NCBI GenBank assembly: GCA_964478315.1
Contig: CAYZID010000001.1
Coordinates: forward strand, 14,619 to 78,618
Origin: an uncultured Myxococcales bacterium
GTDB taxonomy: Bacteria; Myxococcota_A; UBA9042; PHBI01; JAAZYN01
Direction: 5' to 3'
Length of the DNA: 64,000 nucleotides
Part shown: piece by piece, positions 29,855-50,499 of the stretch
How the letters are laid out: every line of letters begins with the position of its first letter
How positions within the stretch are numbered: position 1 is the stretch's first letter
The notes under the pieces: model-generated
The model's input: the letters and a program-made list of their open reading frames with translations, nothing else
The model's database searches: none
Told to the model about the DNA's origin: nothing
Position numbers and translations under genes: made by a program

Positions 29855-29855
29855 C

Positions 29856-30979: not shown

Positions 30980-31001
30980 GCGGCCTCCTGTTGTGAGCGG
31001 G

Positions 31002-31823: not shown

Positions 31824-31826
31824 GGC

Positions 31827-32216
31827 CTACACCTCCACCGGAGGGACGGACAGCACGTCGAGCTCCACTTCCGTACCGGCCGGGATGGCGTCGCTCCGGT
31901 AGTGCTCCGACGTCAGCCCGTTGAACGACCCGTCCGACGCCGCCGTGTAGGTGAAGCGCACGCCTTCGATCCACACCGCCCCGGCCCCAGGGAAGGCCAG
32001 CGTGGTTTCGACCAGCGCAACGTCGTCGTCGGGGGCGAGGTCACGCACGAGCCGCGTCACCGGCCGGCCGTGCTCCAGCTCGAACTCCTCGCCGACGGCA
32101 TGGAGAAGGGTTGCCAGCACCGGCCCGGGGAACTCGTCGAACACGTCCCCCACATCCACCACGAGGGAGGCTGGGACGGTGAACGGGAGCGAGTTGGGGT
32201 TGGCGGGGAGACCCAT
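31827..32216 (-). CDS. phage tail-fibre module hypothetical protein
   Basis: ATG at 32216 (MGLPANPNSLPF...) directly after the upstream stop at 32219-32221. The track ORF starts at a GTG at 32276, which is less likely because it overlaps the upstream gene. Confidence 0.5.
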   Translation of the reverse strand: MGLPANPNSLPFTVPASLVVDVGDVFDEFPGPVLATLLHAVGEEFELEHGRPVTRLVRDLAPDDDVALVETTLAFPGAGAVWIEGVRFTYTAASDGSFNGLTSEHYRSDAIPAGTEVELDVLSVPPVEV

Positions 32217-32218
32217 GG

Positions 32219-33385: not shown

Positions 33386-33388
33386 CGC

Positions 33389-33979: not shown

Positions 33980-33994
33980 CTCCGGCTCCTCCTG

Positions 33995-35053: not shown

Positions 35054-35142
35054 GCCTGCCTCTCCCCGCCGCCCATCCGTTCACCTTGGGCGACGCGTTG
35101 ATGCTAGGGCTGGGCGACCGGCGGCGGAAAAGGAACGCTGGG

Positions 35143-35895
35143 CTAGGCCGCAGGCGCTGGCGCGTGGCTTGGGCCATCCGACCACATCGTCGGCATCTGA
35201 TCCCAGGTCCTGCCGTCGAGAAGGCGGCCTGCCTTCTTCTTGTTGCGCCCACCCCACTGCTTGAAGAAGAACGGGACGTCGGCTTCACGACACTGCCTGA
35301 GGATGTCCACGACCCACGCGGGATCCATCGGCCTTGGCCTGCGCCCGGACTCACCACCAACAATCACCCAGTGGATCCCGTCCAGAGGGAGCTTACGGAT
35401 CGGCCCAAGCAGGGGCTCAACCGACAGGAACCGGACGCTTGCACCCTCGACAGCCTGGAGGTCGGCAACTCGTGATGCACGCTTCTGATCTTCCACAGAG
35501 ACGCCCACCCAGACGTTGGTTGGCCACGGGAGTTCCTTCGCCAACGATCGCAGTCGGCCAGACCTCTTCGTGAGCACCTGGAACGTGTGCTGGTGCGCGC
35601 GGACCATGACGTCGAAGACCCGCTTGATGTAGCTGTCCGGAACCTCCTCATGGAAGAGGTCACTCATGGAGTTCACGAAGACGAGCCGTGGCTTGCGCCA
35701 CCTGAGAGGAAGCTCCAAGGCTTCGGGCACCAGCCGCAAGTCGAACCCCTGCTCGTAGGCGCTCCCCGGCACACCGCGGAACCGCTCAGCGAAGGCTTCC
35801 GCGTAGCAGTACTTGCACCCCGGCGAAACCTTCGTGCAACCGCGAACAGGGTTCCACGTCGCGTCCGTCCACTCGATGTCCGATTTGGCCGACAT
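35143..35895 (-). CDS. DUF5131 (phage Gp37/Gp68, three-Cys-motif) family protein
   Basis: N-terminal IEWTDATWNPVRGCTKVSPGCKYCYAE, C-x7-C-x2-C, as remembered for the Gp37/Gp68 family. ATG at 35895 with GGAGG upstream. AT-richer than the flanks. Confidence 0.6.
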   Translation of the reverse strand: MSAKSDIEWTDATWNPVRGCTKVSPGCKYCYAEAFAERFRGVPGSAYEQGFDLRLVPEALELPLRWRKPRLVFVNSMSDLFHEEVPDSYIKRVFDVMVRAHQHTFQVLTKRSGRLRSLAKELPWPTNVWVGVSVEDQKRASRVADLQAVEGASVRFLSVEPLLGPIRKLPLDGIHWVIVGGESGRRPRPMDPAWVVDILRQCREADVPFFFKQWGGRNKKKAGRLLDGRTWDQMPTMWSDGPSHAPAPAA

Positions 35896-35950
35896 GCTGC
35901 CTCCCGCGCTTTCCCCTAGAATCGTAGCTGCCAACTGAACGAAAGTCCAG

Positions 35951-37075
35951 TTATTGTGGCGGGAAGGACACCAAAGTGCGATCCGCCATCGTTGGAGTCC
36001 CATTCCTCTTCGGCCTGCTGCCGGCCGGGGGGGCGCACGTGACCTCGCCGGCCGCCTCCATCTTCACCAGAACGGCCTTGTAGTTCTTCTTGACGTACGG
36101 CGTGCCGACGTGGTGTTCGCGGATGATGTCATCAACCATGACGGTCCTGCCAGCGAACTTGCTGGCAAGCACTCGACGAAGGTGATCCGTTGACCGCGAG
36201 TACGGGAACAGCAGGCTCAGTTGCGGGTCATCAACAGGCGTGTACTCGAACCTGGCAACGCCATCCTCAGACTTCTCGCTTTCTCGGTACATGATGTCCT
36301 TCATGATCGAGTAGCCAAGAACATGCTTGGACGCGAAGAACAGGTAGTGGCTGGTTCGCTTGCCCCCGTCCGCGCGGAAGCGGAACGGGAGAACGTACTC
36401 CGCATTGCCGCGAAGCAGCCTCTCGCCGAAGGCGTTCACGATGACGTACTCCCGTGCCGTTGGCTCAAGACCCTTGACCCTTGCACGGAGAGCATCCGCT
36501 TCATCCTCACCGAATAGTGCGTTCATGTGTTGTGCAACCAGCTCGTTGCCGAGCCCCATGTTGATGCGGTTGTAGTTGAAGAAGAAGATGAGGTCCGTTC
36601 CCCAGTCCTTCAACGCCGCGTCGAGCAGTCGCAACGACAGCCCCTTGTACCCCCATGGGTCAAAGAAGACGAGGCTCTTCGGGATGGCCGTCTCTTCCAA
36701 CCACCGAGTCATCTCTTCGCCGACTTCGAAGTTGCCAACCAACGGTTCATGCTTCAGCTGCTTGATCCCTGGGAGTTCTTCGATGGCAGCACAAAGTGAG
36801 TCGGCGCTTGCCTGGTCGGCGTCGTTGAAGATGGCCCAAAGGGTCTCGCGCAGCTTTGGGTCCTGCAGTGCCATCTCCAGCACAAGGATTGGTGTGGACT
36901 TCGAACCGTCCTTGTACCGGCCTGGCCCCGCGAACAGGTCGATGTACCCGATCACAGGTGCGCCCACCTTCACCAACATCACCCTTGCCCATGCATCGAA
37001 GTACTTGCTGACGATCGCAGCCTTGACCGCGGACGCACCAGTCTGCTCATCAAAGAAGCTTGTCCCCATGCTCAT
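35951..37075 (-). CDS. TcmP-like (three-Cys-motif partner) protein; N-terminal SAM-MTase-like motif I (IDLFAGPG)
   Basis: Immediately upstream of the DUF5131 gene on the same strand, the arrangement described for the TcmP family. YIDLFAGPGRY resembles methyltransferase motif I. Assignment from memory of the family definition, not from a search. Confidence 0.45.
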   Translation of the reverse strand: MSMGTSFFDEQTGASAVKAAIVSKYFDAWARVMLVKVGAPVIGYIDLFAGPGRYKDGSKSTPILVLEMALQDPKLRETLWAIFNDADQASADSLCAAIEELPGIKQLKHEPLVGNFEVGEEMTRWLEETAIPKSLVFFDPWGYKGLSLRLLDAALKDWGTDLIFFFNYNRINMGLGNELVAQHMNALFGEDEADALRARVKGLEPTAREYVIVNAFGERLLRGNAEYVLPFRFRADGGKRTSHYLFFASKHVLGYSIMKDIMYRESEKSEDGVARFEYTPVDDPQLSLLFPYSRSTDHLRRVLASKFAGRTVMVDDIIREHHVGTPYVKKNYKAVLVKMEAAGEVTCAPPAGSRPKRNGTPTMADRTLVSFPPQ

Positions 37076-37104
37076 CTCCTCTCATGACACCACTTGCCTG
37101 CTTG

Positions 37105-37118
37105 TCAGGCATGCCTGA
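37105..37118. promoter_or_regulatory. perfect 14-bp palindrome TCAGGCATGCCTGA 30 bp upstream of the TcmP-like gene start (candidate operator)
   Basis: Read directly. Self-complementary. Lies in the 72-bp gap between the BRO-N gene stop and the TcmP-like start. Confidence 0.35.
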
Positions 37119-37147
37119 GGGGAGCATCTCACGCGCAGCGAACGCTG

Positions 37148-38290
37148 TCACGCCGCCTGGCACCGCTGCCCGGCCTGTGCGGGCGTTGCGGCACGGGCCT
37201 TCCGTGCGGCGCGCTGGCGGCGCTTGCGGTCGCGGTCCCGGGCCCGGGCCGCCTCGCGCTTCTTCTCCAAGGCCGCGATGGTGGCCCTGGCTTCCTCCAG
37301 CTCCCTGGCGAGGGTCCTGGCAACGTCCGCGTCGGGCCCCGAGGGAGGAGCAGCCGCAGGCTGAGGCGGCGCCATGAGCTGGTAGGGCTGCTGGGCGCCG
37401 CCCCCGAGGCGCTGGGTGAGCAGCTCTACGAGCTGCCGCTGGCCGGCCGCCGCCTGGGCCTGCGCTTCCACGACCTGCTGGGCCATGGACGCCGTGGCCT
37501 CTACGACGGCGCGGCCCATCTCCGTGACCGCGGCGAGGACTTGCTGGAGCCCGACATCGCCGCTGTCCGCGGACACGTCCTCGCCCGTCCGCGGACGCGC
37601 CGGCGGGGGAGGGGGCGACGCGGGGCGTGCGTTGGGCATCGAGTAGCTCCCCGTCCGGCGCAGCACTGGCAACACCTCGTGCGCCAGCCAGCGCTTGAAC
37701 CGCTGCGCCGCCTTCACGCGCGACGTGAAGATGAGCCGGTAGAGGCCGGGCTCGTTGATGGTGACAGCACGCTGCGTTCCACCGGACGAGCGCTTACCAG
37801 ACGTCTCCTTGTCGCGAAGGGGGTCCACAATCTGGACCCCCTTCTCGTCGTCGTCGAGCCGCGAGAGGACCTGCTTGTGGTTCTTGAGCCCAAGCGCTGC
37901 GCACACGTCCTTGCCCACGAACCAGGGCTCGCCGTCCTGCATGACGACGCGCACGTCGTGCCCCTCGAAGGCGAAGGGGGCCAGGGCCCGCTCAGCGGCC
38001 TCCGGCATGGCGGGCCCATCGAGCATCATGGCCCTGGCCTCATCGGCGTTGCGGGGCTGGGGCCTGCACTCGTTGTCGGCGCCCGGGTGGGTCGCGCAGG
38101 CCTCCACGACATCGAGCGCCCACGGGTCGCCGGCCTTCCAACGATCGTAGGTGGCCGGGCCGAGCTGGACGTACACCCGGCCGCCAACCTGCACGCCGCG
38201 GCCGTAGAGCCCGGGTGAGGCCGCTCCGTACTTGCAGATCGTCACGGCGTGACTAGGGTTGGGGCTGCTCAGCAGTTCTGGCTTGTTCAC
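37148..38290 (-). CDS. BRO-N domain protein (phage antirepressor-like) with Pro/Ala-rich linker and coiled-coil/basic C-terminus
   Basis: BRO-N core (FEGHDVRVVMQDGEPWFVGKDVCAALGLKN...VTINEPGLYRLIFTSRVKAAQRFKRWLAHEVLPVLRRTGSY). GTG start with AGGAG 7 nt upstream. Confidence 0.7.
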   Translation of the reverse strand: MNKPELLSSPNPSHAVTICKYGAASPGLYGRGVQVGGRVYVQLGPATYDRWKAGDPWALDVVEACATHPGADNECRPQPRNADEARAMMLDGPAMPEAAERALAPFAFEGHDVRVVMQDGEPWFVGKDVCAALGLKNHKQVLSRLDDDEKGVQIVDPLRDKETSGKRSSGGTQRAVTINEPGLYRLIFTSRVKAAQRFKRWLAHEVLPVLRRTGSYSMPNARPASPPPPPARPRTGEDVSADSGDVGLQQVLAAVTEMGRAVVEATASMAQQVVEAQAQAAAGQRQLVELLTQRLGGGAQQPYQLMAPPQPAAAPPSGPDADVARTLARELEEARATIAALEKKREAARARDRDRKRRQRAARKARAATPAQAGQRCQAA

Positions 38291-38312
38291 GTGAGTACTC
38301 CTGTTGGGCTGC

Positions 38313-38352
38313 GCCCCGCTGGCGCTCCAATCGCCAGCGGGGCTTTCTTTTC
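38313..38352 (+). terminator. GC-rich hairpin (12-bp arms GCCCCGCTGGCG/CGCCAGCGGGGC, 7-nt loop) followed by TTTCTTTTC
   Basis: Read directly. Terminator-like on the plus strand. On the minus strand it lies in the 5' leader of the BRO-N gene. Its role is ambiguous (insulator, operator or leader structure). Confidence 0.35.
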
Positions 38353-38379
38353 GACTACGAGTAGTATCCTAATACATGG

Positions 38380-38408
38380 TTGCTGCGCAAGCAACGCTGC
38401 CTTATCTT
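38380..38408 (+). promoter_or_regulatory. candidate promoter TTGCTG-17 bp-TATCTT driving a leaderless RHH gene; -35 lies within inverted repeat TTGCT-GCGCA-AGCAA
   Basis: The -10 ends 6 nt before the ATG at 38415 and there is no SD. Inverted repeat at 38380-38394. Confidence 0.4.
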
Positions 38409-38414
38409 CATGTC

Positions 38415-38603
38415 ATGGCGAAGCGCACCGGAGAAAAGACCGAGCTGATCCAGGCACACGTCACCCCCGAGCAGTTCAAGAAGCTCGACGACTGGGCGTG
38501 GTCGCACCGGATGACGCGCGCGGAGGCCATCCGCCAGCTCCTGAAGGTGGGGATGGCCTACTGGGAGGAGGCGTCCGCGCGGGGCGAGGAAGGCGCGGGA
38601 TGA
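38415..38603 (+). CDS. ribbon-helix-helix (CopG/Arc-like) DNA-binding protein
   Basis: 62 aa. Predicted beta strand (TELIQAHVTPE) followed by two helices (QFKKLDDWAWSHRMTRAEAIRQLLKVG). Divergent from the BRO-N gene. Confidence 0.55.
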   Translation: MAKRTGEKTELIQAHVTPEQFKKLDDWAWSHRMTRAEAIRQLLKVGMAYWEEASARGEEGAG

Positions 38604-38872
38604 TCCTTAGCTGGCCACCGTGTTCTGTAGGCCGTAGGATGTACTTCGCAACGGAGGTGGTCGGGATGGGACGCAAGATGCGTCAGAAGGCGCGTGCCCT
38701 GCTTAGCGGCATGAACAACGCCCTTGCCTTCACCGGGGACATCTCTCCTCGCCGCAAGCACTTCAGTGGCCCAGAACGTGACGCCGAGAACATGGCGCGC
38801 GACTGGGCTTGGACGATGCACGACTTCAAGGTGGCATGTGAGCAAGAGGCGAGGCGGTCGCAGACAACCTAG
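38600..38872 (+). CDS. hypothetical 90-aa protein translationally coupled to the RHH gene (ATGA overlap)
   Basis: Strong G/C bias at third codon positions in this frame, unlike the overlapping 38724 frame. No recognisable domain. Confidence 0.45.
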   Translation: MILSWPPCSVGRRMYFATEVVGMGRKMRQKARALLSGMNNALAFTGDISPRRKHFSGPERDAENMARDWAWTMHDFKVACEQEARRSQTT

Positions 38873-38924
38873 CAGCGCTCCTGCAAAGGCTGACACAACC
38901 GTCGAGGTAGGATCGCAAGCTGCT

Positions 38925-39362
38925 CTGCCGGCCGATCATGTCGTTGCGACGACGTTCTACGCATCACGCGGCCCACTCCCTGCCCCTGAGCTTCTTCGGG
39001 CCTACGAGATGGCTGTACCAGGCTTGGCCGAGCGCATCGTCATGCACATGGAGGGTGAGAGGGACCACAGGTTCGAGATGGATCGGGCCGTGCTCAAGAT
39101 GGAGCGGCTCGGGCAATACCTTGCGGCCGGGCTCGCCATGGCTGGGATCGCTGGCGGTGTGACCTTCGCAGCCCTGGGCGCCCCATGGGCCGGGGCAGTT
39201 GTTGGCGTCATCGTCCCGCTCTCTGTTCTCTTGCGCGGGGTGTTCAAGGTGCGCCACGGGGACAGCGGGCTTGAACTGGACACGCGGGCTCAGAGCCCAC
39301 CGGCTGCGCCGGAGGACACGAACGAGAGAGGTCCGCAAGCCACAACGACCGACGACGGCTGA
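38925..39362 (+). CDS. DUF2335-like membrane protein (start codon uncertain)
   Basis: Conserved-looking GPLPAPELLRAYEMAVPGLAERIVMHMEGERDHRFEM followed by two TM helices. No in-frame ATG/GTG/TTG between the upstream stop (38872) and this motif. 38925 is an in-frame CTG after GAGGTAGGA. Next ATG is at 39009. Confidence 0.4.
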   Translation: MPADHVVATTFYASRGPLPAPELLRAYEMAVPGLAERIVMHMEGERDHRFEMDRAVLKMERLGQYLAAGLAMAGIAGGVTFAALGAPWAGAVVGVIVPLSVLLRGVFKVRHGDSGLELDTRAQSPPAAPEDTNERGPQATTTDDG

Positions 39363-39412
39363 CATCCTCGCCCTCCGCTGCTACCGTCGTCGTGACCAGC
39401 GGAGGTGCCACG

Positions 39413-40075
39413 ATGATGCGAGCTGTTCTCATGACGATCTTGTTGCTGCTCCTGCCCCTCCCCACGGCGTCCGCGAGGTCGCTGTGCGGCGAACTCGACG
39501 CCATGCCGTCGGACCTGGACGCGACGACGTGGACGGCCTACGGCTGCCTCAGCCGGAGCGACGCGGGCGACTACTGGGATCAGTGCTTGAAGCGCAAGGA
39601 CTACACGCGCAAGCGCGGTGGCGGTTGCCCAGGTTCGCAGCGGTGCTGCCCCGGTGACGCCGTCTTCGCGGCGAAGATGAGGGAGCGGGAGCAGGCCGTT
39701 CGGGACGAGCAAGCGCGGAAGCGCTTGGAGGCCGCGGCCGTGGACGCGGCAGAGTTGGGCGAGGACCACGGCTCGGGGGCGTCAGCCTTCGCGGTGCTGT
39801 ACGCGGTCTTTCTGTTCGGCGGCCCGGCGTTGTTCTTCGGCCTCATGGCACTCGTGCTCGGGCTCTTCCTGCGCGGTGGAGGGGCTGAAGGGGTCGCAGG
39901 GGCCGTGCTCGGGTCCGTGGCTGGGTGGATGGTCGTCTTCGCCGCGTCCGGCGGGTGGGCTGCGATGTTGCTCGGCTACGCCATCGTCGCTCCAACAACG
40001 TTCATCGGCGCCGTCATCGGCCTCGTCATCGGCGTCAAGAAGGCGCGGGCGAGAGAAGCGCTGCTGGGGCCGTAG
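39413..40075 (+). CDS. membrane protein with signal peptide, Cys-rich extracytoplasmic domain and C-terminal TM helices
   Basis: MMRAVLMTILLLLLPLPTASA signal. 7 Cys in the first 90 aa. Hydrophobic C-terminal 100 aa. Confidence 0.5.
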   Translation: MMRAVLMTILLLLLPLPTASARSLCGELDAMPSDLDATTWTAYGCLSRSDAGDYWDQCLKRKDYTRKRGGGCPGSQRCCPGDAVFAAKMREREQAVRDEQARKRLEAAAVDAAELGEDHGSGASAFAVLYAVFLFGGPALFFGLMALVLGLFLRGGGAEGVAGAVLGSVAGWMVVFAASGGWAAMLLGYAIVAPTTFIGAVIGLVIGVKKARAREALLGP

Positions 40076-40080
40076 GCGAG

Positions 40081-41271
40081 CTAGCCGTTGTCGGAACCGT
40101 CGTCATCGGTCTCGTCGGAGTGGCCAAAGCACCTCTCCATGAGTTCCCAGCCGCCGGCCGTCTCCGACCACATGGACCTTGGCCACGCGTAGAGCACTCG
40201 CGCACCTGGTCCGATGATCCTGAACGCCATCACCTTGGTGGTAACGCCGCGGAGCTTCACGCGCTGCCGCAGCGGGAACCGCAGCAGCTTCCTCATCCGC
40301 GCTGGGATCGCTTCCACGGTTCTTGTGGCCTGCCCTTCGACGCGAAGGATCGCCTGGAGAACCAGGTCTTCCGCGGCCTTCCGGATTGCTTCTGCCTCGT
40401 CTTCTCCAGCATCCACATAGAAGGACCGCCTCGTTCCGCGCACGTAGTAGCGGTGGTTGCTGTTTCCAAGCAATGACAGAGCCTTGCCCGGCTGACCAAC
40501 AACCATGAACACCTCGTCTGCTGTGTTCAGCTCATCGCATGCTGGCCCGCCAACATCCGGCTCCGAGCAAGGGCGACTTGCGCCCCATGGCGATCCGACC
40601 CAACCATTCCACGTCACCGGGAACCTGTGCCGCTTGAAGTCGTACTCTCCAAGAGGAACCGTCATGGTCGAACAGACCATCTTGCCCTTCGCCTTCTTCC
40701 TGAAGGCCTTGCGAGCCCTGATGCATCGTCGGTACTCGAACTCGTTGAAGTGCTCACGGGACTTGTAGACGTCGCAGTTCCTGAACCAGTTGCCGAGGAA
40801 GTCCCCATACGGTGGGGGCTCCATGGTGTTGGCCAGGAGCTTCTCGAACGGGCCCCATGAGGCGCTCCTCTCGTTCCTACGCTCTGCGGCCTCTCCTGCG
40901 GCCTTCCCCTCCTCTTCCTCGCCATCAGGCGTAGTGGCCGGCTCTTGGCACCTGCGGTTGGCCTCGTCAAGCTCGGCTAGGGCCTTCTCATTCCTGCGCA
41001 TCTCCTCCACCAACGCGTCCTTGCTGGCCTTGAGCTGCTTGAGGCATCCATTGCGCTCGTCGCGAACGACCTGCTCTCGGACGCTTGTCTCCTTCTGGGC
41101 CGTCGTGCACGACCGCAGTTCTTCTTGTACACGCTTGAGTTCCTCCGCTCGTTCGTCGCGCTCCCTCACGACCCGCAAGTAGGTCTCACTGGAGACGCAG
41201 CTCGGCAACCACAGTGCGGACGCAACCACCACGACGGCCCAAGCTACAACACGAAGCCAACCATCACGCAT
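40081..41271 (-). CDS. secreted coiled-coil protein with Cys-containing C-terminal domain, unknown function
   Basis: ATG at 41271 (MRDGWLRVVAWAVVVVASALWLPSC). Charged coiled-coil region, then globular C-terminal half. AT-richer codon usage than the backbone. Confidence 0.5.
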   Translation of the reverse strand: MRDGWLRVVAWAVVVVASALWLPSCVSSETYLRVVRERDERAEELKRVQEELRSCTTAQKETSVREQVVRDERNGCLKQLKASKDALVEEMRRNEKALAELDEANRRCQEPATTPDGEEEEGKAAGEAAERRNERSASWGPFEKLLANTMEPPPYGDFLGNWFRNCDVYKSREHFNEFEYRRCIRARKAFRKKAKGKMVCSTMTVPLGEYDFKRHRFPVTWNGWVGSPWGASRPCSEPDVGGPACDELNTADEVFMVVGQPGKALSLLGNSNHRYYVRGTRRSFYVDAGEDEAEAIRKAAEDLVLQAILRVEGQATRTVEAIPARMRKLLRFPLRQRVKLRGVTTKVMAFRIIGPGARVLYAWPRSMWSETAGGWELMERCFGHSDETDDDGSDNG

Positions 41272-41424
41272 CGCGACCTCCCAGGGAGCACAACAGGTCG
41301 GTCGGATGGTACGGGGCTTGGCGACCAGCATGCAAGCACGGAGACCACCCAGGAACACTGGCTTCCGTTGTGGCAGGCGCCAACTCATGAAGAGGCTCTC
41401 TGGAGCGGCGCAAGGCGAGGCCGA

Positions 41425-42561
41425 CTACGGCCGCCCGAACCCAGTCAGGTAGAAGCTCTGGTCCGTGAGGACGCCGTCCTTCGTGAGGTGCACCCGGAAG
41501 GTCGTGTAGTTGGTGAGCGGGTCGTAGTTGAGCACGGTCACGCACGCCGCGAAGGTGGCGGCGGTGGGGGTATAGAAGTCCGCCGCGTCGGAGGCCGGCG
41601 TCACGTGGACGGTGTTCAGCACGCCCTCCACGACGATCTCGACCACGCCCGCGCTCGGCGAGCTGTAGCTCTTGATGTTGCCCTTGTGGTCCGACGCGCT
41701 GTAGCCCGGGGAGCCCCCGGTGTAGTTCATCCGCCCCGACGTGATGACCGTCACGTCGTAGAGGGTGTCCTGGATGTTGGTGATCTCCGCCTCGGCGTTG
41801 GACAGGCCGGTCTCCAGGTCGGTGACCGCGGTGTCCAGCTCCGTGAGGTCGCGCGCGGGGGCGCCGAACCACGTCTTCGTTCCCGCCTTGTCCTGGATGG
41901 TCGCCAGGGCCGCGATGATGGTCGTCAGCGCCTGGGACACGCCGAGCTGCGGGTACATCCCCATGATGGCCCTGACGCGCGTCTCCGCCCCCCCCAGCCC
42001 GTCGTCGTTGTAGTCGAAGGGGCTCAGCATCACGATCGCCGGCACGTTCCCGTTCCAGCTCGTGACGCGCGCGAACTGGAACCACCCGGCGCTCCCGTCG
42101 GGCTCCGTCACGCCCACCCCGAAGACGACCCGCTGGCGCGACACCGTCTTCGGTGACGGGCTCATGGCCACCTCGGTCCCGGTCGCCGCGTCCCACGCCT
42201 TGCGCAGCTCCTGGTCCGTGTCGAAGCCCACCGCACGAGCCCACAGGTAGGGGGTCTGCCCGACCTGGCCGGAGAGGTCCACCGTGGAGATCTGCCCCGA
42301 GGCCGCGGGGTCGTGACGCACGACGGTCCCCGTGGGGATCTTCCCATCGGTTCCCGCCGGCGCCGCGGTGAACAGCAGCCCAGCCCCGATGGACACCGCG
42401 GCGATGTTCGTGGTGTCCAAGGCGCACCCCGACAGCACGCCAGCTCCTTCCCCGACGAGACCACCGAGCATGCGGCCCAGGTACTCGTCCACGAAGGTCT
42501 GGATGCGGTCGAGATCCACCAGGTCGAGGCGCTCGTCGTCGTACAGCTTCACGAAGTCCAT
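41425..42561 (-). CDS. phage tail/baseplate-associated protein (gpI/tail-fibre-like, downstream of J)
   Basis: ATG at 42561 with AGGAG upstream. Sits directly after the baseplate J gene. Confidence 0.5.
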   Translation of the reverse strand: MDFVKLYDDERLDLVDLDRIQTFVDEYLGRMLGGLVGEGAGVLSGCALDTTNIAAVSIGAGLLFTAAPAGTDGKIPTGTVVRHDPAASGQISTVDLSGQVGQTPYLWARAVGFDTDQELRKAWDAATGTEVAMSPSPKTVSRQRVVFGVGVTEPDGSAGWFQFARVTSWNGNVPAIVMLSPFDYNDDGLGGAETRVRAIMGMYPQLGVSQALTTIIAALATIQDKAGTKTWFGAPARDLTELDTAVTDLETGLSNAEAEITNIQDTLYDVTVITSGRMNYTGGSPGYSASDHKGNIKSYSSPSAGVVEIVVEGVLNTVHVTPASDAADFYTPTAATFAACVTVLNYDPLTNYTTFRVHLTKDGVLTDQSFYLTGFGRP

Positions 42562-42614
42562 GTCGGTCTCCTGGGCCCACGGGGCCCTGGTCGGAGGGTG
42601 GGGCTGCTGGGGTG

Positions 42615-44048
42615 CTAGGTGACGTCCACCAGGTCTGGCTTGGTGCGGAGCACGGTCCGCAGGTCTGCGGGTTCCACGTCGCCTGTGGGGCTCTCGATGG
42701 TCGCGAGGCGCAGCCCGTCCACGCGCTTCAGAGCGCAGCGCACGTCGCTGAGGACCATCGCCTGGCCCGGCCCGAGGGACGCCAGGATGGCAACCAGCTC
42801 GTCCTTGACCGTCGTGCGCAGGGTGGAGACGTCCACCCCGGTCCCATCCGCCACGATGCGGACCGTGAACGACACCCACTGCACCGTGGGGGCGACCACG
42901 CGCACGCGCGTCCCGGCCGCCCGGTAGCCTGGGGAGCCGAAGATGTCGGACGGGTCGCCCTCGATGGCCGCCTGGAGCTCGCGGAGCACGCCGGTGTAGA
43001 CCTGGTAGTTGCGGATCCTCCAGTGGTCCCCCGGCGAGAACAGACCCGCCTCGGGCCGCGGGTAGAGGAGCCCGCGCTCCTCCTGGATGAGCCACGGGGC
43101 GTCCTGACCCTGCGCGAAGGTGAGCTGCAGCCAGTTCGCGCCGTCCCCGCGCTCCACCGTGTAGGTGGGCCCCACCATGGGGGCCTCGAAGTAGAGCGAG
43201 CGGGCCCCGTTGGCTGGGATGACCCCGGTCACCTCCGCGCCATCGCGGGTGAACCCGACCATCCCGGAGCCGTCGTCGACGACCAGCTCGGCGTAGCCCG
43301 GGCGGAAGGGGTCCTCGAGCAACGCAGCGTGCCGCAGCCGCACGCCGTCGGAGCCCTGGAACGTGCGGGCGAGGTACAGCAGGGCCGCACCCTGGGACCG
43401 CGCCAGGCCCGACAGGAACAGAAGCGCCCGCTGGCGCAGGGCGTCGTCGCTCTCCCTGTCCGTCCCGCCGGCGACGGGCGCCACGTTGGTCACCGATACG
43501 ACGCCATCCGGCATCGCCACCGGGATGGTGAGCGTCCCGCTGGCCGCGTTGCCGCGGGTGCCGCGCGTCGTGCAGACCACCTGGATGGGTGGGGCTGAGC
43601 TGTTGGGCGGGTAGAAGGCCTCCCCTACCTGCATGGTGACGGTCTGGGTCGTCACGTAGACCAGGGTCGCGTCGTCCTTGTGGGCCACCCTGGAGCCCGC
43701 TGGGATCTCGAGCGCGGTCGACGTGTCCGTGCGTTCGACGCGGAGCACGGGGCCCGCGGCGGGGGCCGCACCGAGCCGCGGCGTGAAGCCTGGCGGCATG
43801 TCCATCAGCCGGGCGTCCAGGTCTTTGCCCTTGGCATCCAACCAGAAGGCGTCGCGGATGGCGCCAAGGCGCTCCTCGACTAGCTCGAACTCCTCGGCGA
43901 TGACTGCGAGCACGTGGCGCAGTGAGGAGCTCTCCGTCAGGTCGACCACGGATGGGCGCATACGTGCGACGAAGCGTGCGCCCAAGCCCTGCTCGATCTC
44001 CTCGCGCGTCCGGGGCTCGAACTCCCCAGGCTGGTTCGACGTGGTCAT
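42615..44048 (-). CDS. baseplate J-like protein
   Basis: Length and position between W-like and I-like genes. Sequence features consistent with the Baseplate_J family. Confidence 0.6.
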   Translation of the reverse strand: MTTSNQPGEFEPRTREEIEQGLGARFVARMRPSVVDLTESSSLRHVLAVIAEEFELVEERLGAIRDAFWLDAKGKDLDARLMDMPPGFTPRLGAAPAAGPVLRVERTDTSTALEIPAGSRVAHKDDATLVYVTTQTVTMQVGEAFYPPNSSAPPIQVVCTTRGTRGNAASGTLTIPVAMPDGVVSVTNVAPVAGGTDRESDDALRQRALLFLSGLARSQGAALLYLARTFQGSDGVRLRHAALLEDPFRPGYAELVVDDGSGMVGFTRDGAEVTGVIPANGARSLYFEAPMVGPTYTVERGDGANWLQLTFAQGQDAPWLIQEERGLLYPRPEAGLFSPGDHWRIRNYQVYTGVLRELQAAIEGDPSDIFGSPGYRAAGTRVRVVAPTVQWVSFTVRIVADGTGVDVSTLRTTVKDELVAILASLGPGQAMVLSDVRCALKRVDGLRLATIESPTGDVEPADLRTVLRTKPDLVDVT

Positions 44049-44057
44049 GTGGGACTC

Positions 44058-45641
44058 CTATCTGTTGCCCGGCTTGGGGACGGGCGCCATGAGCTGGATG
44101 CGTCCGCCGTGATGGGCCACGAGGTGGAGGTCGGCCGTGATGGCGTCTCCCTCGTCGGTGACCTCGATGCGTTCGACCTTGGCGATCCTCGGGTCACGGA
44201 GCGCTTGCCGGCGCGCGTGCGCCGCAACAAGAGCCGCCGCCTCGTTCCCGATGTCCTCACCCACGAGCTTGGGCAGCCCGAGGGCGGGGAAGGGGCCGCA
44301 CTCGCCCTGGACGGTCGCGAAGCGGGTCGTGATCCCCTGGCGCAGGTTGGCGGGGCCGCGCACCCACCGAACATCAGTGGCCTCTGCGCCGTCGAGCGCC
44401 CAGTCCCCGTCCTTAAGGAGGACATCGCTACCGTAGGGGTCGCCGTCGCCGGACATCTCGGCGCCATCTCCCTGCCCGCCACCGCCAGGGAGGGAAGGAA
44501 CCAAGATCGTGATGCCGGGGCGGAACGGGCTCCCGTCGTTCATCATCGTGGCCGAGGTCATCCCGTTGAGGTCCGCGATGAGCTTCCACCAATCCCCGCT
44601 CCCAAGAAGCTCCTCCGCGATGTCGCGCAGGGTGACACCGGCGGGCACGATGTAGGAGACGACCGCGGCGTCCGGCGGCAGCTCGGCCGGAGGCGCCATC
44701 CACGACGCGAACGGGACGTCCCCTCCCTCGCCACGACCCGCGCCAGCGACGCCAAGAAGCTCGTCGGCCCGACGCTGCGTGTCACCGATCGGCGCGAGGA
44801 GGCGCATGATCGTATCGCGGCTGGCGCCCCGGTGCGCCTGTGGCAGGCTCTCCCACTTCGCGATGATGGACGCGCGGGAGTTGGCGGCGACCCTGGAGAT
44901 CTCCGCGGCCATGGCGAACGGGAAGGTCACGACGCCGCGCAGCTCGTCCATGGCATCTAGGACCGCCAGCACAGTTCGCCCAAGGGCGCGGATGGGCTCC
45001 TTGAACTCCTCCAGCGAGTAGCGGAGGTCGCTGAGGAGCAACTCGGTCTGCGCCAAGTAGGCGTTCGCGGAGTTGATGAAGGCCGTCGCCGCGCGGGCCC
45101 TCGTAACAGCCGACGCGAGGAGCCCGGTCGGAAGCACCTCCTCGGTCGCGTAGGCGCGCAGGGACAGCTCCCAGCCGGTCGTGAAGTTGTGCTGGTCCAC
45201 CGACTTGGACCTGCGGATGCTGCTCGGCTCCACGAGGTATGCGTGCCCGTAGTCCAGGGCGAGGAAGACCATATGGATGCGACGCGGCTGCGTGCGCGCC
45301 GCAGCGCCACTAGCCACGACTTGCCGTCCTTCAGCAGCTTGCGAGTCCTCCTGGTAGCGCCCGAGGAACTCCTCGAAGGCCTCCACGTGCTCCTTGCCAG
45401 TGATGAAAGCTTCGCCGCCGTTCGCCGTGCGTGCCGCTCGCGGCCCGTAGCCCGAGGTTCCGCGCAGCAGGATGCGCGTCTCGCGCACGCCGGTGTGTTC
45501 CCGCTCCGGCTCCGCGCCAAGCGTCCAGGTGAGCTGCGACGCCTCGTCCCGCGACACGTCGTAGGAGGACACGGGGGGCAGGATGAAGGCTCGGTCCAGC
45601 CGATCGTCCTCGTAGACCTGCAACATGAACCGGACCTTCAT
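44058..45641 (-). CDS. baseplate protein with LysM-like segment and C-terminal GPW/gp25-like domain
   Basis: LysM-like YIVPAGVTLRDIAEELLGSGDWWKLIADLNG. gp25/W-like C-terminus (RFATVQGECGPFPALGLPKLVGE...KVERIEVTDEGDAITADLHLV). Confidence 0.6.
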   Translation of the reverse strand: MKVRFMLQVYEDDRLDRAFILPPVSSYDVSRDEASQLTWTLGAEPEREHTGVRETRILLRGTSGYGPRAARTANGGEAFITGKEHVEAFEEFLGRYQEDSQAAEGRQVVASGAAARTQPRRIHMVFLALDYGHAYLVEPSSIRRSKSVDQHNFTTGWELSLRAYATEEVLPTGLLASAVTRARAATAFINSANAYLAQTELLLSDLRYSLEEFKEPIRALGRTVLAVLDAMDELRGVVTFPFAMAAEISRVAANSRASIIAKWESLPQAHRGASRDTIMRLLAPIGDTQRRADELLGVAGAGRGEGGDVPFASWMAPPAELPPDAAVVSYIVPAGVTLRDIAEELLGSGDWWKLIADLNGMTSATMMNDGSPFRPGITILVPSLPGGGGQGDGAEMSGDGDPYGSDVLLKDGDWALDGAEATDVRWVRGPANLRQGITTRFATVQGECGPFPALGLPKLVGEDIGNEAAALVAAHARRQALRDPRIAKVERIEVTDEGDAITADLHLVAHHGGRIQLMAPVPKPGNR

Positions 45642-46348
45642 CCGTCAGCCTCCGAGCGCTCCGAGACATGCACGGCCGCGGCGCGGATGGCGTCGGGCAC
45701 GAGGGTGGGGACCTGCCCGAAGAAGGGCGTGATGGCCTTGTGCGTCGTGGGGTCAACGGCCAGTGCTTGGATCCACGTATCGACCGCTGCCAGGTAGTCG
45801 TTGATGGCCTTCAGGTGGTCCAACAACGGGCCCGCCAGGGGCAGTCGCTCCGTTGCCTCCCCGCCCCGTGAGACACGGAGCACGCCGCCATCAGCGAGCT
45901 GGACCCGTACGGTGGCGTCCCCCGCCTCCCTGGCATCCAGCGTGATGGCGCCGTGCTCGTCGACGATGAGTCGCGCCCCTCCGTTCACGCGGGCGAAGTC
46001 GGCCTTCCCGATGACGCCCGGGTGGTCCTCCTGCTGGTCCACCACCGGGGCGTCCTCAACCACCTCGCCCCCGTCAGCGGGGAGCATCCCGATGGCGAGC
46101 GGCTTCACGTAGGGACCGCGCAGTACGAGGAGCACCTGCCCTCGGTCGCGTGCGAGCTCGCCATGGCCGCTCTCGGGTGGCTCCACGGGCTCTACCCCCC
46201 ACGTGCGCTTGCCGCCGCCGACCGTTGCGAGCGGGACCTGCGTCCAGAACGCACCGTCCTCGGTTGAGCAGTCGACAACGACGTGCCCGTCGAGCACGTA
46301 GACGTCGTCCACGAGGGCGACCATGGCGCCTGGCGCGTCGAGGCTCAT
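45638..46348 (-). CDS. phage baseplate protein (gpV/spike-like)
   Basis: Size and position. 4-nt overlaps on both sides. Confidence 0.45.
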   Translation of the reverse strand: MSLDAPGAMVALVDDVYVLDGHVVVDCSTEDGAFWTQVPLATVGGGKRTWGVEPVEPPESGHGELARDRGQVLLVLRGPYVKPLAIGMLPADGGEVVEDAPVVDQQEDHPGVIGKADFARVNGGARLIVDEHGAITLDAREAGDATVRVQLADGGVLRVSRGGEATERLPLAGPLLDHLKAINDYLAAVDTWIQALAVDPTTHKAITPFFGQVPTLVPDAIRAAAVHVSERSEADG

Positions 46349-48141
46349 GCCGCCACCCCGCCCAGGCCGCGGGCGCCGCTCAGCTCCCGAGCACGTTCAT
46401 CGAACAACCCGCGGCTGAACTGGACCGTGGTCGTCGCCGTGATGGTCGGGCCGTTGGCGGTGAAGGTGTGCGTGACCGACTCCACGTAGGCCGTCAGCTC
46501 CCCGCCTGGCACGCCTGCTGGCATCTGCACACGGATGGGCTCACCGTGGCGAAGAGGGCGCCCTTGGAGCCCGGCCGGGCTGTACTTGAGCGTCAGCGTC
46601 CCCGACTCGAAGCGCTCGCGCCCCATGTGCCACTGAGCTGCCTGCGCCGCGATGGTTCGGATGAACCGCGCAAGGGGCTGGTTCTTCCCGTCGTAGGGTG
46701 GGAAGAACGGCCAGTTGGGCTGGTAGAGCCTGGCGCCCCGCCAGTCCATGGGGCCCGTCGCGCGCCCTGGGGCCGTCTTCTGCACGATGGGGAGTTGGAG
46801 CTCCTCCATGAACCGCAGCACCGACTGCGCCTGCATGGGGAGGTCGTCGGTCACCATCGTGACCGCGGCAGCGTCATCTGCCGTCCACGTCACCGCCATG
46901 ACCTTGTCGCGGGGTATGACCGGGGCGGTGCTTGCGTCCCAGGTCACCTCCGTGAAGAGGTCCTCGTCGATGTCGAGCTGAGCCGCCCCTCGGACGGTGC
47001 TGGTGTCACCGACATGGAATCCGGCACCTTGGCCCCGGACGTAGTCCTTCAGCGGGGAGACGCGCCAGGGGCGCATCCGATAGAGGAGCACGGGGTTGCG
47101 CCCAAGTACCTTCGCGAGCCCCGATGCGAGCCGGACGGGGGGGCTGCGGCGAAGCGCCCTCGCACGGTCGAGGTCACGCTTCACCATGGCCTCTTCGAGC
47201 ACATTGCGATCCTGAAGCCCGAGTGCTTTGTAGAGCCGCAGCCCGGCCTTCGTGAACGTGCTCGTGTCAACCCGCCCTAGCGCCTCCGCGCTGAGGTAGC
47301 CGCGCAGGTCGCCGGGGGCTTCTTCCGGCACGCCTGGCGCCTCCAGGGACGGGAACATCTCCATCATCCCTGGGTCGCCCATGAACGAGGCGAAGAGCAT
47401 GCCCGTGACGCTGTTCCCGCCCGGTGTCAACTGCGACAAGCCGTTGAGCGTCCAACCTGGAACCCGCTCTACAACACGGTCAGGAGCGAACGCCTTGCGG
47501 GTGTTGGGGTCATGGACAACCTCCGCGTGCCTGCCAAGCAGCAGGCCGTTGCCCGTCCCATCGCCGCCGCCGAGGGTCTCGGGGAGGGTCACGACGGCCA
47601 ACTCGCGCCACAACTCGCGCAGGGCCTCCCCGATGTCCCGCCGCATGAAGGCCGTCTCGATGCGGTTCACGCCGTGCAGCTCCACCGCTGCCACCGTGGA
47701 CCTGACCAGGGCCTCGATGACGTTCCGCCACGAGTTCCACCCGAAGGCGGTCCCGGCCCTGTCCTCGTAGTCCGCTCCCCCACGAGCCCCCGAGTAGGTC
47801 ACGTAGAGCTGCGCCAGGGTGAGCGGCTGGAGCCAGGAGCCAGCGGACACGTGCACGTAGTCGGTGAAGATGCCGCCGCGCCCGTCCGCCTTGATGCCTC
47901 CGCTGCGCCGCGTGACGTACCCGAGCGCCACGGCCGTCTTTCCGAGCCGTACGAGGAGCCAATCGGCCGGCCTGGGGGTGTGGGTGGCGAGGAGGTGGCG
48001 CGGTAGCTTGAAGACGGCCTCGATGCCGCCCCACGGTGGGGACACCTGGTCGGTCCACGACACGGACACGCAATGGTCCGTCAGGTCGGTGGGGGCCGCG
48101 CCGTGGCGGTGCAGCTCGATCGTGGGGACGCGCGCCGACAT
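46345..48141 (-). CDS. phage tail/baseplate-hub-associated protein (DNA-circularisation/gpD-like position)
   Basis: 598 aa between the tape-measure fragment and the baseplate genes. No specific motif recognised. Confidence 0.45.
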   Translation of the reverse strand: MSARVPTIELHRHGAAPTDLTDHCVSVSWTDQVSPPWGGIEAVFKLPRHLLATHTPRPADWLLVRLGKTAVALGYVTRRSGGIKADGRGGIFTDYVHVSAGSWLQPLTLAQLYVTYSGARGGADYEDRAGTAFGWNSWRNVIEALVRSTVAAVELHGVNRIETAFMRRDIGEALRELWRELAVVTLPETLGGGDGTGNGLLLGRHAEVVHDPNTRKAFAPDRVVERVPGWTLNGLSQLTPGGNSVTGMLFASFMGDPGMMEMFPSLEAPGVPEEAPGDLRGYLSAEALGRVDTSTFTKAGLRLYKALGLQDRNVLEEAMVKRDLDRARALRRSPPVRLASGLAKVLGRNPVLLYRMRPWRVSPLKDYVRGQGAGFHVGDTSTVRGAAQLDIDEDLFTEVTWDASTAPVIPRDKVMAVTWTADDAAAVTMVTDDLPMQAQSVLRFMEELQLPIVQKTAPGRATGPMDWRGARLYQPNWPFFPPYDGKNQPLARFIRTIAAQAAQWHMGRERFESGTLTLKYSPAGLQGRPLRHGEPIRVQMPAGVPGGELTAYVESVTHTFTANGPTITATTTVQFSRGLFDERARELSGARGLGGVAA

Positions 48142-48144
48142 GAG

Positions 48145-49227
48145 CTAGTCCCTCACGTGCCCACCGACGTGCAGGAGCTTCTTGCCGTCGCTGTCCTTGC
48201 TGCCTGGCGTCGGTGTCTTCTTGTGCGAGTCCTCGCTCGCCGCAATGGTCTTCTTGATTGCGTCATCCATGGCGCCGAAAGAACCACCAAGGAGACTCGC
48301 GACCTTGAGGATCGCCTTCGTGAGCATCTTGGCCCCGTCGCCAACCTTGTTCATCGTGTCCTTCAGTTCCTCAACGGTTGCAATCAGATCCTTCGCATCC
48401 TTGTTGCTCATGGTGTTGAGCCGCGCCTGCTGCGCGGCAGCCACACGACCCATCAGCCCGGCAGCTCGTCCAGACGGAAGCGACGGGAAGCTCGGTTCCT
48501 TCAGCCTCCCAGCCAGTCCAGTTGCCATCCCGCTCGTGGCCCCCATCGACGCGAAGCCCAGTGCCGCCGTACGCCCACCGAACATCTCCACCATGGCCTT
48601 GCGGGTGATGTTCGGGTCGCCCTGCATCTTCTCGATGGCCTTGACCATCCCGAGGACGCCCCCGCCCGACTGAGCGGCCCTGGCGAGAAGCGCCGAGCGC
48701 GCCAGCCCGCCAAACGGCCCGAGCAACGTGCTTCTCGCATCCGCTTGGGCCCGCGAGAGGCTCGCCGAGACCGAGCCGAGGCGCATCCCCTGCCCCTTGA
48801 AGGGCCCACCCGTGGCCTGCATCCGCGCGGCGAACTCCTCCATGCGCGAGACGTTGACGTTCAGCCCCTGTCTCCCCATCTCCGCCGTGTTGGCGGCGAT
48901 GGCTTGGAGGAACTGATCCACGCGTGCCCCGCGCAGCCCTTCCTTCATCGCTAGGGAGACCATCCTGACGATGTTCCCTCCCGTGCGCGTTCCGCCAACA
49001 CCCGGCGCAAGTTGCCCGCGGTAGGCCGCGATGGCGCCGAGGCCCACACCGCGCGTCATGAGGCGCAGGAAGTTCGGGTGGCTACCAGACAAGAAGCCGA
49101 CCTGTTGCCCGAAGGCCTGCGAGAGTGCAGCCGACTCGTCCGGCATGTAGCCGTAGCCGGCACGAGAGGCGCCAGGACCGGACAAGGTCGCCATACCTCG
49201 CATCCTCTGGATGCGTGCCTTCTGCAT
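48145..49227 (-). CDS. tail tape-measure-like protein, C-terminal portion only (probably truncated)
   Basis: Gly/Ala/Met-rich low-complexity TMP-like sequence. The track ORF runs to 49437 but would overlap the divergent integrase 5' end. An internal ATG at 49227 is used. Only about 360 aa, too short for a myovirus TMP. Confidence 0.45.
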   Translation of the reverse strand: MQKARIQRMRGMATLSGPGASRAGYGYMPDESAALSQAFGQQVGFLSGSHPNFLRLMTRGVGLGAIAAYRGQLAPGVGGTRTGGNIVRMVSLAMKEGLRGARVDQFLQAIAANTAEMGRQGLNVNVSRMEEFAARMQATGGPFKGQGMRLGSVSASLSRAQADARSTLLGPFGGLARSALLARAAQSGGGVLGMVKAIEKMQGDPNITRKAMVEMFGGRTAALGFASMGATSGMATGLAGRLKEPSFPSLPSGRAAGLMGRVAAAQQARLNTMSNKDAKDLIATVEELKDTMNKVGDGAKMLTKAILKVASLLGGSFGAMDDAIKKTIAASEDSHKKTPTPGSKDSDGKKLLHVGGHVRD

Positions 49228-49330
49228 GGCGAGTTGGTATCGCTGCGCAAGGGCTGCCCCACCGACTGCGGCCAAAGCGCCAAGTACTGGAACGGAGGCA
49301 CCGAGTCCTCTCCCAAGACCGGCAATCCAG

Positions 49331-50281
49331 TTGGAGTTCGACCTCGCGAACGCATCGCTGAGCGCCCCGGCCCCGGCCACCCTGGGCGACCTGGTGGACC
49401 GCTTCGTGGCGCGGACATCGACATCGACTGGGCGCACCCTCTCTCCAGCGACGGCGCGCGCCTACAAGTCGCAGCTCCAGTCGCTGGTCGCGGTCGCAGG
49501 GCGTGGGCGCCCCATCATGCACGTCACCAAGGCCCACGTAGAGGCAGCCGTCCAGCGTCCTGCGTCCAGCCGGTCGCGATCGCAGTACCTCCGCGCCATC
49601 CGCGCGCTCGTCCGGTGGGCCGTCGCCAGGGGGTGGATGGTGGACATCACCGACGGCGTGGTCGTCGACGCAGGACCGACCGTCATCCGTCCCTACCTCC
49701 AGCCCGAGGAGGTGGAGGTCATGCTTGCCGCGGCGTCACCATCCACGCGCATCCGCGCGGGGCTCATCCTGGAGACGGGGATGCGGGCCGGGGAGGCCGT
49801 CCATGCAACGTGGGAGTGGGTCGTTCGTGGCATCGGTCGGCCATCCATCCGTATCCCTGCGGCTGACGGCGCCTGGCGTGCGAAGGGCCGGCGGGCGCGC
49901 TCCATCCCGCTGTCCGAGGCTGCACAGCGGTGGCTGGACGAAGCGCGCAGGGTGTGGCCCAAGACGAACTGGCTCCTGCACGACCAGCCGGCCCCTCCAC
50001 AGACGAGCAACTGGTGTCGGGACGTCCACCGTGCCTGCCGCCGCGCCGGCACGACGGACGTTGACACCCACGGCCTCCGTCGCACGGCGGGCGTTCGATG
50101 GCTCGCCGCTGGCCTGAGCATCTACGACGTCTCCAGGCTTCTCGGGCATGCCTCGGTCGTCACGACCGAGCGGGCCTACGCTGGCATCGCTGACGCTTCT
50201 TGGGCCTCCGTCATGGACCGCGTCGACGAGGCCGCCGAGGTCCCGCGCCTTGCGGCTGCCAGGGCGAAGCGCCGCCAGTAG
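49331..50281 (+). CDS. tyrosine-type site-specific integrase
   Basis: Core-binding region (TLGDLVDRFVART...ARAYKSQL). Catalytic motifs (RIRAGLILETGMRAGEA; HGLRRTAGVRWLAAGLSIYDVSRLLGHASVVTTERAY). TTG at 49331 chosen to avoid overlap with the TMP fragment. ATG at 49211/49226 are alternatives. Confidence 0.75.
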   Translation: MEFDLANASLSAPAPATLGDLVDRFVARTSTSTGRTLSPATARAYKSQLQSLVAVAGRGRPIMHVTKAHVEAAVQRPASSRSRSQYLRAIRALVRWAVARGWMVDITDGVVVDAGPTVIRPYLQPEEVEVMLAAASPSTRIRAGLILETGMRAGEAVHATWEWVVRGIGRPSIRIPAADGAWRAKGRRARSIPLSEAAQRWLDEARRVWPKTNWLLHDQPAPPQTSNWCRDVHRACRRAGTTDVDTHGLRRTAGVRWLAAGLSIYDVSRLLGHASVVTTERAYAGIADASWASVMDRVDEAAEVPRLAAARAKRRQ

Positions 50282-50379
50282 CCACAGCCTGCAACCACCG
50301 AGAACTTCAGAGAAGTGCCCCGCCGTGGTGTCAGCATGCGGACCGAATAGCCCTGTGAGCACGGGGTGTTGCCATAACC

Positions 50380-50390
50380 TGACACCCACG
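50380..50390 (+). repeat. third copy of the TGACACCCACG motif, 65 bp before the attR core
   Basis: Read directly. Same orientation as the attL copies. Confidence 0.5.
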
Positions 50391-50455
50391 GCGCCATCAA
50401 GGCAGTGCCGCCAGAACCCAGTGATGGCGGGATGTTGTCACCAAGAGGAGCATCG

Positions 50456-50499
50456 GATTCGTAATCAGCAGGTCGGCGGTTCAAATCCGCCTGTCGGCT
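50456..50499 (+). repeat. attR core: displaced 3' half of tRNA-Thr followed by an encoded CCA
   Basis: Identical to 29473-29516. Followed by CCA (50500-50502), unlike the intact gene at attL. Confidence 0.8.

Follow-up and report, generated by a model that had tools for sequence, protein, structure and literature searches.

Prophages described as 'grounded', such as e14, Rac, DLP12, and Qin of Escherichia coli K-12, are integrated at attachment (att) sites, have lost essential modules through large internal deletions, carry damaged integrase or excision functions, and retain leftover structural genes together with accessory cargo, with deletion and loss of integrase function being the usual route to this state (PMC6379469). 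A similar element is present in the DNA analyzed here, a 64-kb stretch (hereafter the window) from an uncultured Myxococcales bacterium (positions 14,619 to 78,618 of contig CAYZID010000001.1). The element is an island of ~21 kb (~29465-50499) bounded by a tRNA-Thr(CGT) gene and a partial copy of this tRNA. It is very probably a cryptic prophage remnant derived from a single internal deletion that fused a tape-measure protein (TMP) gene to an integrase gene. An earlier note on this DNA had proposed a large internal deletion of this kind, which fused the TMP gene with the integrase region and left a cryptic prophage behind, and this proposal is supported by the synteny with relatives, the break in TMP homology, and the start of integrase homology. 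The island differs from the E. coli grounded prophages in that it stems from an uncultured myovirus lineage with a baseplate hub that has no relative among GenBank phages, the ends of its deletion can be mapped to ~13 nt inside two identifiable genes, and it keeps a contiguous and apparently intact baseplate and fibre module.

Two other types of system bear comparison. Like Mu-like and phi812-like tail modules, the island has the gene order TMP, hub, spike (by position only), gp25-like, J-like, I-like, and fibres with a J-like protein of family PF04865, and its relatives carry Phi812_tail_tube and Phage_sheath_1 genes. However, the window has no sheath, tube, or chaperone genes, its TMP is truncated, and the identity of its TMP, hub, and 236-amino acid (aa) protein to those of characterized phages is below detection. 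Like R-type tailocins (such as pyocin R2 and diffocin), the island consists of chromosomal phage-tail genes without head or replication genes. Tailocins of this type retain a sheath, a tube, a full-length TMP, chaperones, a lysis cassette, and regulators, while an integrase and att sites are usually lacking. In the island, these retained components are absent or were not found, and the cluster ends inside the truncated TMP. Overall, the island is an ordinary deletion-derived cryptic prophage that followed the ordinary route of prophage decay, and the findings should be unsurprising to phage biologists. It does provide a clean textbook case of a single deletion with both ends inside recognizable genes and, as a by-product, a pointer to an uncultured myovirus lineage. 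In annotations, we recommend treating the island as a defective prophage, its 598-aa protein as a baseplate hub, and the 316-aa 'integrase' and 349-aa 'hypothetical protein' as 5'-truncated pseudogene-like fragments.

The tRNA-Thr(CGT) gene at the left limit (29445..29516, plus strand) was identified by ARAGORN and by the Rfam tRNA model (74.6 bits). Its 3' 52 nt constitute the attL repeat (29465-29516, plus strand), which recurs as a direct repeat (family D2) at 50448..50499 on the plus strand. This second copy is the attR repeat, a displaced 3' part of tRNA-Thr that is identical at 50 of 52 positions (96%), including a 44-nt stretch without any difference between the two copies. A direct repeat of this length at a tRNA 3' end, a typical integration site, confirms the att boundaries claimed earlier. 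Directly past attR, at ~50500-50540, a GC-rich inverted repeat followed by a run of T was recognized by eye. Together with attR, this resembles the original end of the tRNA gene and its terminator, now displaced; a consensus terminator scan listed none at ~50500-50540.

For the TMP-like and 598-aa proteins, the protein database yielded only a handful of homologues, and the contigs encoding them were decisive. The closest relative (L001) encodes a TMP of 508 aa (P0002) that is 46% identical to that of the window. Its tail module starts with four connector-like genes followed by sheath (790 aa, PF04984) and tube (144 aa, PF26461) genes, continues with two overlapping chaperone-like genes (164 and 78 aa), the TMP gene, and a hub homologue of 635 aa, and ends with genes encoding proteins of 234, 505, 510 (Sheath_initiator, weak), 465 (J), 395, and 350 aa. 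The same order is found in L006/L007, L009, and L010, which have TMPs of 500, 515, and 590 aa, respectively. We then used tblastn to survey 16 relative loci with the L001 proteins (four loci obtained via protein look-ups, one GTDB genome, and 11 further IMG/VR loci). In all 15 relatives with upstream DNA, the connectors, sheath, tube, chaperones, a TMP of at least 500 aa, and the hub follow one another, which places the TMP gene between the tail chaperones and the hub. In contrast to these 15, only the window has an integrase adjoining the TMP. The sole L001 proteins with a tblastn match in the window were the TMP (residues 112-462), hub, 234-aa, gp25-like, J, I-like, and 350-aa proteins, while the sheath, tube, tail chaperones, connectors, and an upstream 513-aa protein of L001 had none in all 64 kb. 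The genes that are kept (the truncated TMP, hub, 236-aa, gp25-like, J, I-like, and distal tail genes) have the order of L001, L006, L009, L010, L013, and L015-L018. The GTDB genome scan yielded one distant relative, a Gemmatimonas metagenome-assembled genome (MAG; L013).

The TMP gene of the window is 5'-truncated and retains its C-terminal ~402 codons (48145..49353, minus strand), as judged from tblastn, hidden Markov model (HMM), and synteny evidence. Its maximal open reading frame (ORF) spans 48145..49437 and encodes 430 aa from a GTG start, while the annotated protein has 349 aa and begins at an ATG at 49194. Residues 112-462 of P0002 align to window positions 49353-48310 with 47% identity (E 1.5e-72, tblastn), and an HMM built from the relatives aligns over its positions 115-480 of 510, with high confidence from ORF residue ~34 (49338) and low confidence further upstream. 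A conserved N-terminal motif (M.E.RHKVTIEV..DTR) and a Gly-rich region, both present in all of the relatives, are absent from the window TMP in a multiple alignment (A1). TMP homology reaches well upstream of the in-frame ATGs at 49227, 49203, and 49194; therefore, the annotated 349-aa gene is an internal fragment. The earlier suggestion that the deletion had fallen in the middle of the TMP gene needs to be amended, since ~78% of the gene is kept (from residue 112 to the end of the 508-aa relative) and ~110 residues are lost.

The tyrosine integrase gene at the other side of the junction is likewise 5'-truncated (49367..50281, plus strand; PF00589, 1.1e-18; PF02899; homologue alignment). Its maximal ORF (49211..50281, plus strand) encodes 356 aa, and the annotated 316-aa protein begins at a TTG at 49331, inside TMP-derived DNA. 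Homologues of this integrase, which were found in various MAGs, are 47-63% identical and 372-443 aa long, and they have a conserved domain N-terminal to the SAM-like domain (consensus F.DDG.Y..R.SP.R...RW.VDAYYRG.R...DAE..A..LW.DY) for which Pfam holds no family. All nine align only from residues 68-86 onward, to window positions 49367/49373-50245, and their first 67-85 residues have no match anywhere in the window. The HMM alignment is consistent with this, as its posterior support rises from low values upstream of ORF residue ~52 to the maximum downstream of it. The SAM-like core-binding and catalytic domains are both intact, and the window has each of the residues that we assigned as catalytic in alignment A2 (Arg, Lys, His-x-x-Arg, His, and Tyr), all of them in invariant columns. 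Integrases of the lambda type need their N-terminal arm-binding domain for recombination between attL and attR, and by analogy the domain missing here is presumed to be an arm-binding domain as well. A full-length integrase with 54% identity (P0015, locus L110) lies at the end of a prophage directly after helicase, AAA_24, RusA, ParB-like, and MT-A70 genes, which indicates that replication and recombination genes normally precede an integrase of this type. Two other searches were uninformative: the P0016 homologue is situated in a mixed recombinase island, and an IMG/VR search with the integrase alignment returned generic integrases only.

Thus, two genes without 5' ends (the TMP lacking residues 1-111 and the integrase lacking its first 67-85 residues) meet head to head with no intergenic region. 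The deletion junction falls at 49354..49366 (conservative interval 49339-49366), in the short gap between the two stretches of homology. Alignment to intact related phage loci, as the earlier note had advised, was indeed able to map it, with the end of TMP homology at residue 112 lying at most 13 nt from the start of integrase homology. The overlap of the two ORFs noted previously at 49211-49437 exists for the maximal ORFs, which share 227 nt, but not for the parts supported by homology, which abut (TMP up to 49353 and integrase from 49367). The overlap arises because, in DNA this rich in GC, each frame remains uninterrupted where it runs antisense to the other; the GC content of the window is ~70%, and long spurious ORFs are frequent on both strands. 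No sigma-70-like promoter was detected at 48000-50700 in a consensus scan. Four independently assembled contigs from different samples (L002-L005; three from Joint Genome Institute (JGI) metagenomes and one from Logan) match the window across the junction with 100% identity. One of these (L005, Logan SRR5189949, 21,013 nt) corresponds to window positions 50499..29487 and is collinear with the whole island. We considered whether L005 might represent an excised circle and rejected this, as its ends are a forced k=31 break at the 44-nt identical repeat.

The structural phage homologues in the island are limited to the TMP fragment, the hub, the 236-aa protein, the LysM/gp25-like protein, J, the I-like protein, and the distal tail and fibre genes. 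This inventory bears out the previous observation that a tail half supplies the only phage genes inside the att limits. Pfam and PHROGs put a name to few of the core genes, namely the integrase, J, and a baseplate protein with a LysM-like segment (phrog_975), whereas the TMP-like, 598-aa, and 236-aa proteins have no HMM match in either. Among the island proteins scanned with Pfam, none had a domain pointing to head, packaging, or replication functions, to a lysis cassette, or to a regulator, and the island is nearly filled by its tail and cargo genes. The flanking DNA within the window (29 kb on the left and 13 kb on the right) contains no other phage homologues.

The 598-aa protein (46345..48141, minus strand) is a baseplate hub rather than a sheath protein. 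An AlphaFold model calculated from a 9-sequence alignment (predicted local distance difference test (pLDDT) 65, predicted template modelling score (pTM) 0.70) has the fold of solved baseplate hubs, i.e., the gp27 / Mu gp44 / phi812 hub fold. A tblastn search with the hub against 50,697 GenBank phage records found no match, and several contigs of 70-78 kb carry the tail module; the myovirus lineage behind the island thus appears to be an uncultured phage group. A hub scan of metagenomes found only two short and distant fragments and no intact parent. The 236-aa protein (45638..46348, minus strand) occupies by synteny the position of the central spike (V / Mu gp45-like). It is 46% identical to the 234-aa protein that follows the hub in L001, and a post-hub gene of this family is present in all relatives. 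It has no Pfam, PHROG, or PDB sequence match, and its single-sequence AlphaFold2 model was unusable (pLDDT 39.6). Consequently, the earlier label 'V-like' agrees with the post-hub position, while confirmation by HMM or structure was not obtained, and a central spike identity would be a positional assignment. The earlier note had also named a result that would overturn its proposal, namely that the 598-aa or 236-aa protein is a sheath or tube protein and the TMP is full length. The opposite was found on each count, with a hub, a homologue of the post-hub gene, and a truncated TMP.

The rest of the baseplate module is encoded on the minus strand to the left of the 236-aa gene. A baseplate protein of 527 aa (44058..45641) combines a LysM-like segment with a gp25-like, sheath-initiator-like part. 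Its residues 415-506 match phrog_975 (2.2e-13), and weak matches of residues 325-383 to phrog_380 (endolysin) and phrog_8272 (tail protein) fit the LysM-like segment. The L001 homologue is 34% identical over the full length and has a weak match to PF10934 (Sheath_initiator). The J-like wedge protein (42615..44048, 477 aa) matches PF04865 (1e-18) and phrog_6, baseplate wedge subunit (5.5e-45), and is 47% identical to J of L001. Next to it, a gene at 41425..42561 (378 aa as called in L002) encodes by homology an I-like baseplate wedge or fibre-attachment protein, which has no HMM match and is 36% identical to the 395-aa protein following J in L001 and 39% identical to its L009 homologue. As an aside, an extra gene lies between the 234-248-aa and gp25-like genes in L001 (505 aa, 14146-15663) and L006 (886 aa, 12650-15310). 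The two products have the N-terminal ~120 residues in common and no Pfam match, and the gene is missing from the window, L009, and L010.

The most parsimonious history of the locus begins with a temperate myovirus of an uncultured lineage, with a Mu- and phi812-like tail, that integrated at the 3' end of tRNA-Thr(CGT). The left part of the original prophage would have consisted of attL followed by a minus-strand late operon (fibres, baseplate, TMP, tube, sheath, connectors, and head and packaging genes), while the right part would have contained regulatory and replication genes, int on the plus strand, and attR. Replication genes are placed before int in this layout because L110 shows such an arrangement. 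One deletion of several tens of kb, reaching from TMP codon ~110 to integrase codon ~70-85, then eliminated the early, replication, packaging, and head genes together with those for the connectors, sheath, tube, and chaperones. The tail-module contigs L001, L014, L015, and L018 (IMG/VR and Logan) measure 70-78 kb, which hints at a deleted length of 20-55 kb. We infer that the remnant cannot build tails, given the absence of a tube and sheath, the missing N-terminus of the TMP, and the loss of the late promoter. To judge from its sequence, it is probably also unable to excise because the integrase lacks its N-terminal domain, native start, and promoter. The element is therefore probably silent and immobile, and it would persist as 'grounded' DNA, possibly aided by accessory genes that include a candidate defence pair.

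Several observations weigh against this history. No close intact parent was found, including in a scan of metagenomes with a two-sequence TMP alignment that gave no match, so that relatives with 30-47% identity had to serve for deducing the deleted segment and its length. As its catalytic core is intact and a TTG start is annotated, the integrase might have some residual activity, and one of its aligned homologues (P0022) is annotated without most of the N-terminal domain. The TMP frame is open to 49437 and has in-frame ATGs at 49227, 49203, and 49194; thus, a truncated TMP protein could be made. Some representatives of the TMP family in a 1.84-billion-protein library have only 220-460 aa, among which contig-end fragments and naturally short forms are indistinguishable without context. 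The promoter scan covered sigma-70 consensus sites only and has little weight in a Gram-negative organism with 70% GC. Lastly, the retained tail ORFs are all intact and of normal length, which suggests a recent deletion and would also fit selection for some function. Beside these points, one TMP homologue (P0003, 594 aa, 34% identical, from a 2-kb JGI contig) has a C-terminal PF01934 (DUF86/HepT-like) domain, an odd fusion that could be an artefact of gene calling or assembly.

The earlier note had offered a non-canonical tail-derived particle as the alternative. In such a reading, the island would encode a complete and functional particle, either tailocin-like or a 'baseplate-only' device for adhesion or injection. 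Hub, wedge, and fibre components are present in the window, all of the baseplate and fibre ORFs are intact with lengths matching their homologues, and the genes for the hub, J, gp25-like, and fibre proteins belong together as a coherent assembly module. However, there is no homologue of the sheath, tube, or tail chaperones anywhere in the window even though the relatives carry sheath and tube genes upstream of the TMP, the TMP is without its conserved N-terminal ~110 residues, and the upstream late-operon DNA has been replaced by a truncated, divergent integrase. Furthermore, Pfam revealed neither a lysis cassette nor a regulator domain in the island, and such a reduced layout exists in none of the relatives examined, 15 of which have upstream DNA. 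The particle is therefore unsupported, and we consider it extremely unlikely. A phage satellite or mobilizable island that carries its baseplate-fibre module by design along with defence cargo and takes over heads and tail tubes from a helper phage would account for the att sites, the integrase, the compact size of 21 kb, the candidate defence pair (PDC-M30) and Bro-N protein, and the intact tail-tip ORFs. Yet the truncation of the integrase at the junction is a mark of accident rather than design, and the TMP-derived sequence runs directly into it without a start codon or promoter of its own. Pfam also revealed no replication, regulatory, packaging, or capsid-remodelling genes, and no second, diverged copy of the architecture was recovered from IMG/VR, GTDB genomes, or metagenomes. 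Since the att-to-att Logan contig is explained by the k=31 break and not by a circle, it does not help this proposal either, which we judge to be highly improbable.

The junction itself could conceivably be an assembly chimera, or it could stem from an inversion or translocation that moved the rest of the prophage elsewhere in the genome, given that the contigs are assembled from metagenomes and the context visible is only 64 kb. The four independent contigs with an identical junction, together with the NCBI source also listed for the proteins, argue against a chimera, and the absence of further phage homologues in the flanks of the island counts against a missing half elsewhere, for which there is no support. 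There is accordingly only a minimal chance that either of these events produced the junction. Finally, the deletion may have occurred as described and the remnant may since have been kept for a function, either as a defence-carrying island (through the PDC-M30-like pair and Bro-N) or as a baseplate/fibre 'tail-tip donor'. The intact ORFs and the identical sequence across several samples are compatible with this very unlikely scenario. In the latter case, related phages that superinfect the host could acquire the tail-tip cassette by exchange or through its assembly onto their tails, and the remnant would amount to a reservoir of host-range genes.

An accessory block interrupts the tail module of the remnant. 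This cargo (35143..41388) lies between the I-like and PKD genes, and the GC content drops to 0.59-0.65 in it. It includes genes for a DUF5131 protein (35143-36003, minus strand; PF07505, 1.5e-100) and a GMT-wHTH partner (35951-37075, minus strand; Pfam and PADLOC), which together match the PADLOC candidate defence pair PDC-M30A/B (M30B 2.8e-110, M30A 7.5e-21); the related PDC-M41B model scores 5.9e-113. No PDC-M30-like pair was seen in the relatives examined, and the pair could be the reason why the remnant is kept. The remainder of the block encodes a Bro-N protein (37148-38290, Pfam), a DUF2335 membrane protein (ORF 38724-39362, or 39042-39362 as called in L002; Pfam), a protein of 220-227 aa (39392-40075), and a coiled-coil protein of 396-435 aa (40081-41388). 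Cargo is also present between the gp25-like and J genes of relatives: a PIN and a 265-aa protein in L006 (16855-18188), DUF2335 and Bro-N proteins in L009 (14156-16357), and a 1309-aa ddrB-ParB protein in L010 (14389-18318). Identity between the window and L009 is 46% for the Bro-N protein and 36% for the DUF2335 protein, although the L009 genes are located at a different site. From these results, we can conclude that this phage lineage carries different accessory or defence genes at variable sites in the tail module.

To the left of the cargo, the distal tail and fibre genes occupy 29856..35053 on the minus strand, as indicated by Pfam matches (Laminin_G_3, Beta_helix, and K319L-like_PKD) and synteny. 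The 352-aa PKD-domain protein (33995-35053; K319L-like_PKD) is 53% identical to the 350-aa protein of L001. It is followed by genes for proteins of 196 aa (33389-33979), 149 aa (31827-32276), and 273 aa (31002-31823), and these four genes are situated downstream of the baseplate genes in the same order in L013, L015, L017, and L018. The block also contains a beta-helix protein (32219-33385, Beta_helix), a LamG-domain protein (29856-30851, Laminin_G_3), and an unverified ORF at 30566-31063 that has no homologue or domain match; all are on the minus strand.

Outside of the island, the ORF directly to the right of attR (50561-54094, minus strand) encodes 1177 aa and is rich in EGF-like repeats of the Cys-rich 'CxPxPC' type; the L002 contig has it as a 1127-aa protein with no Pfam match on record. 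On the left side, a CoaBC and uracil-DNA-glycosylase gene pair (26225-28379) adjoins the tRNA-Thr gene. The same pair is located near the prophage in L110 (17830-19925; GCA_041687695.1), which suggests that the two hosts belong to a related lineage.

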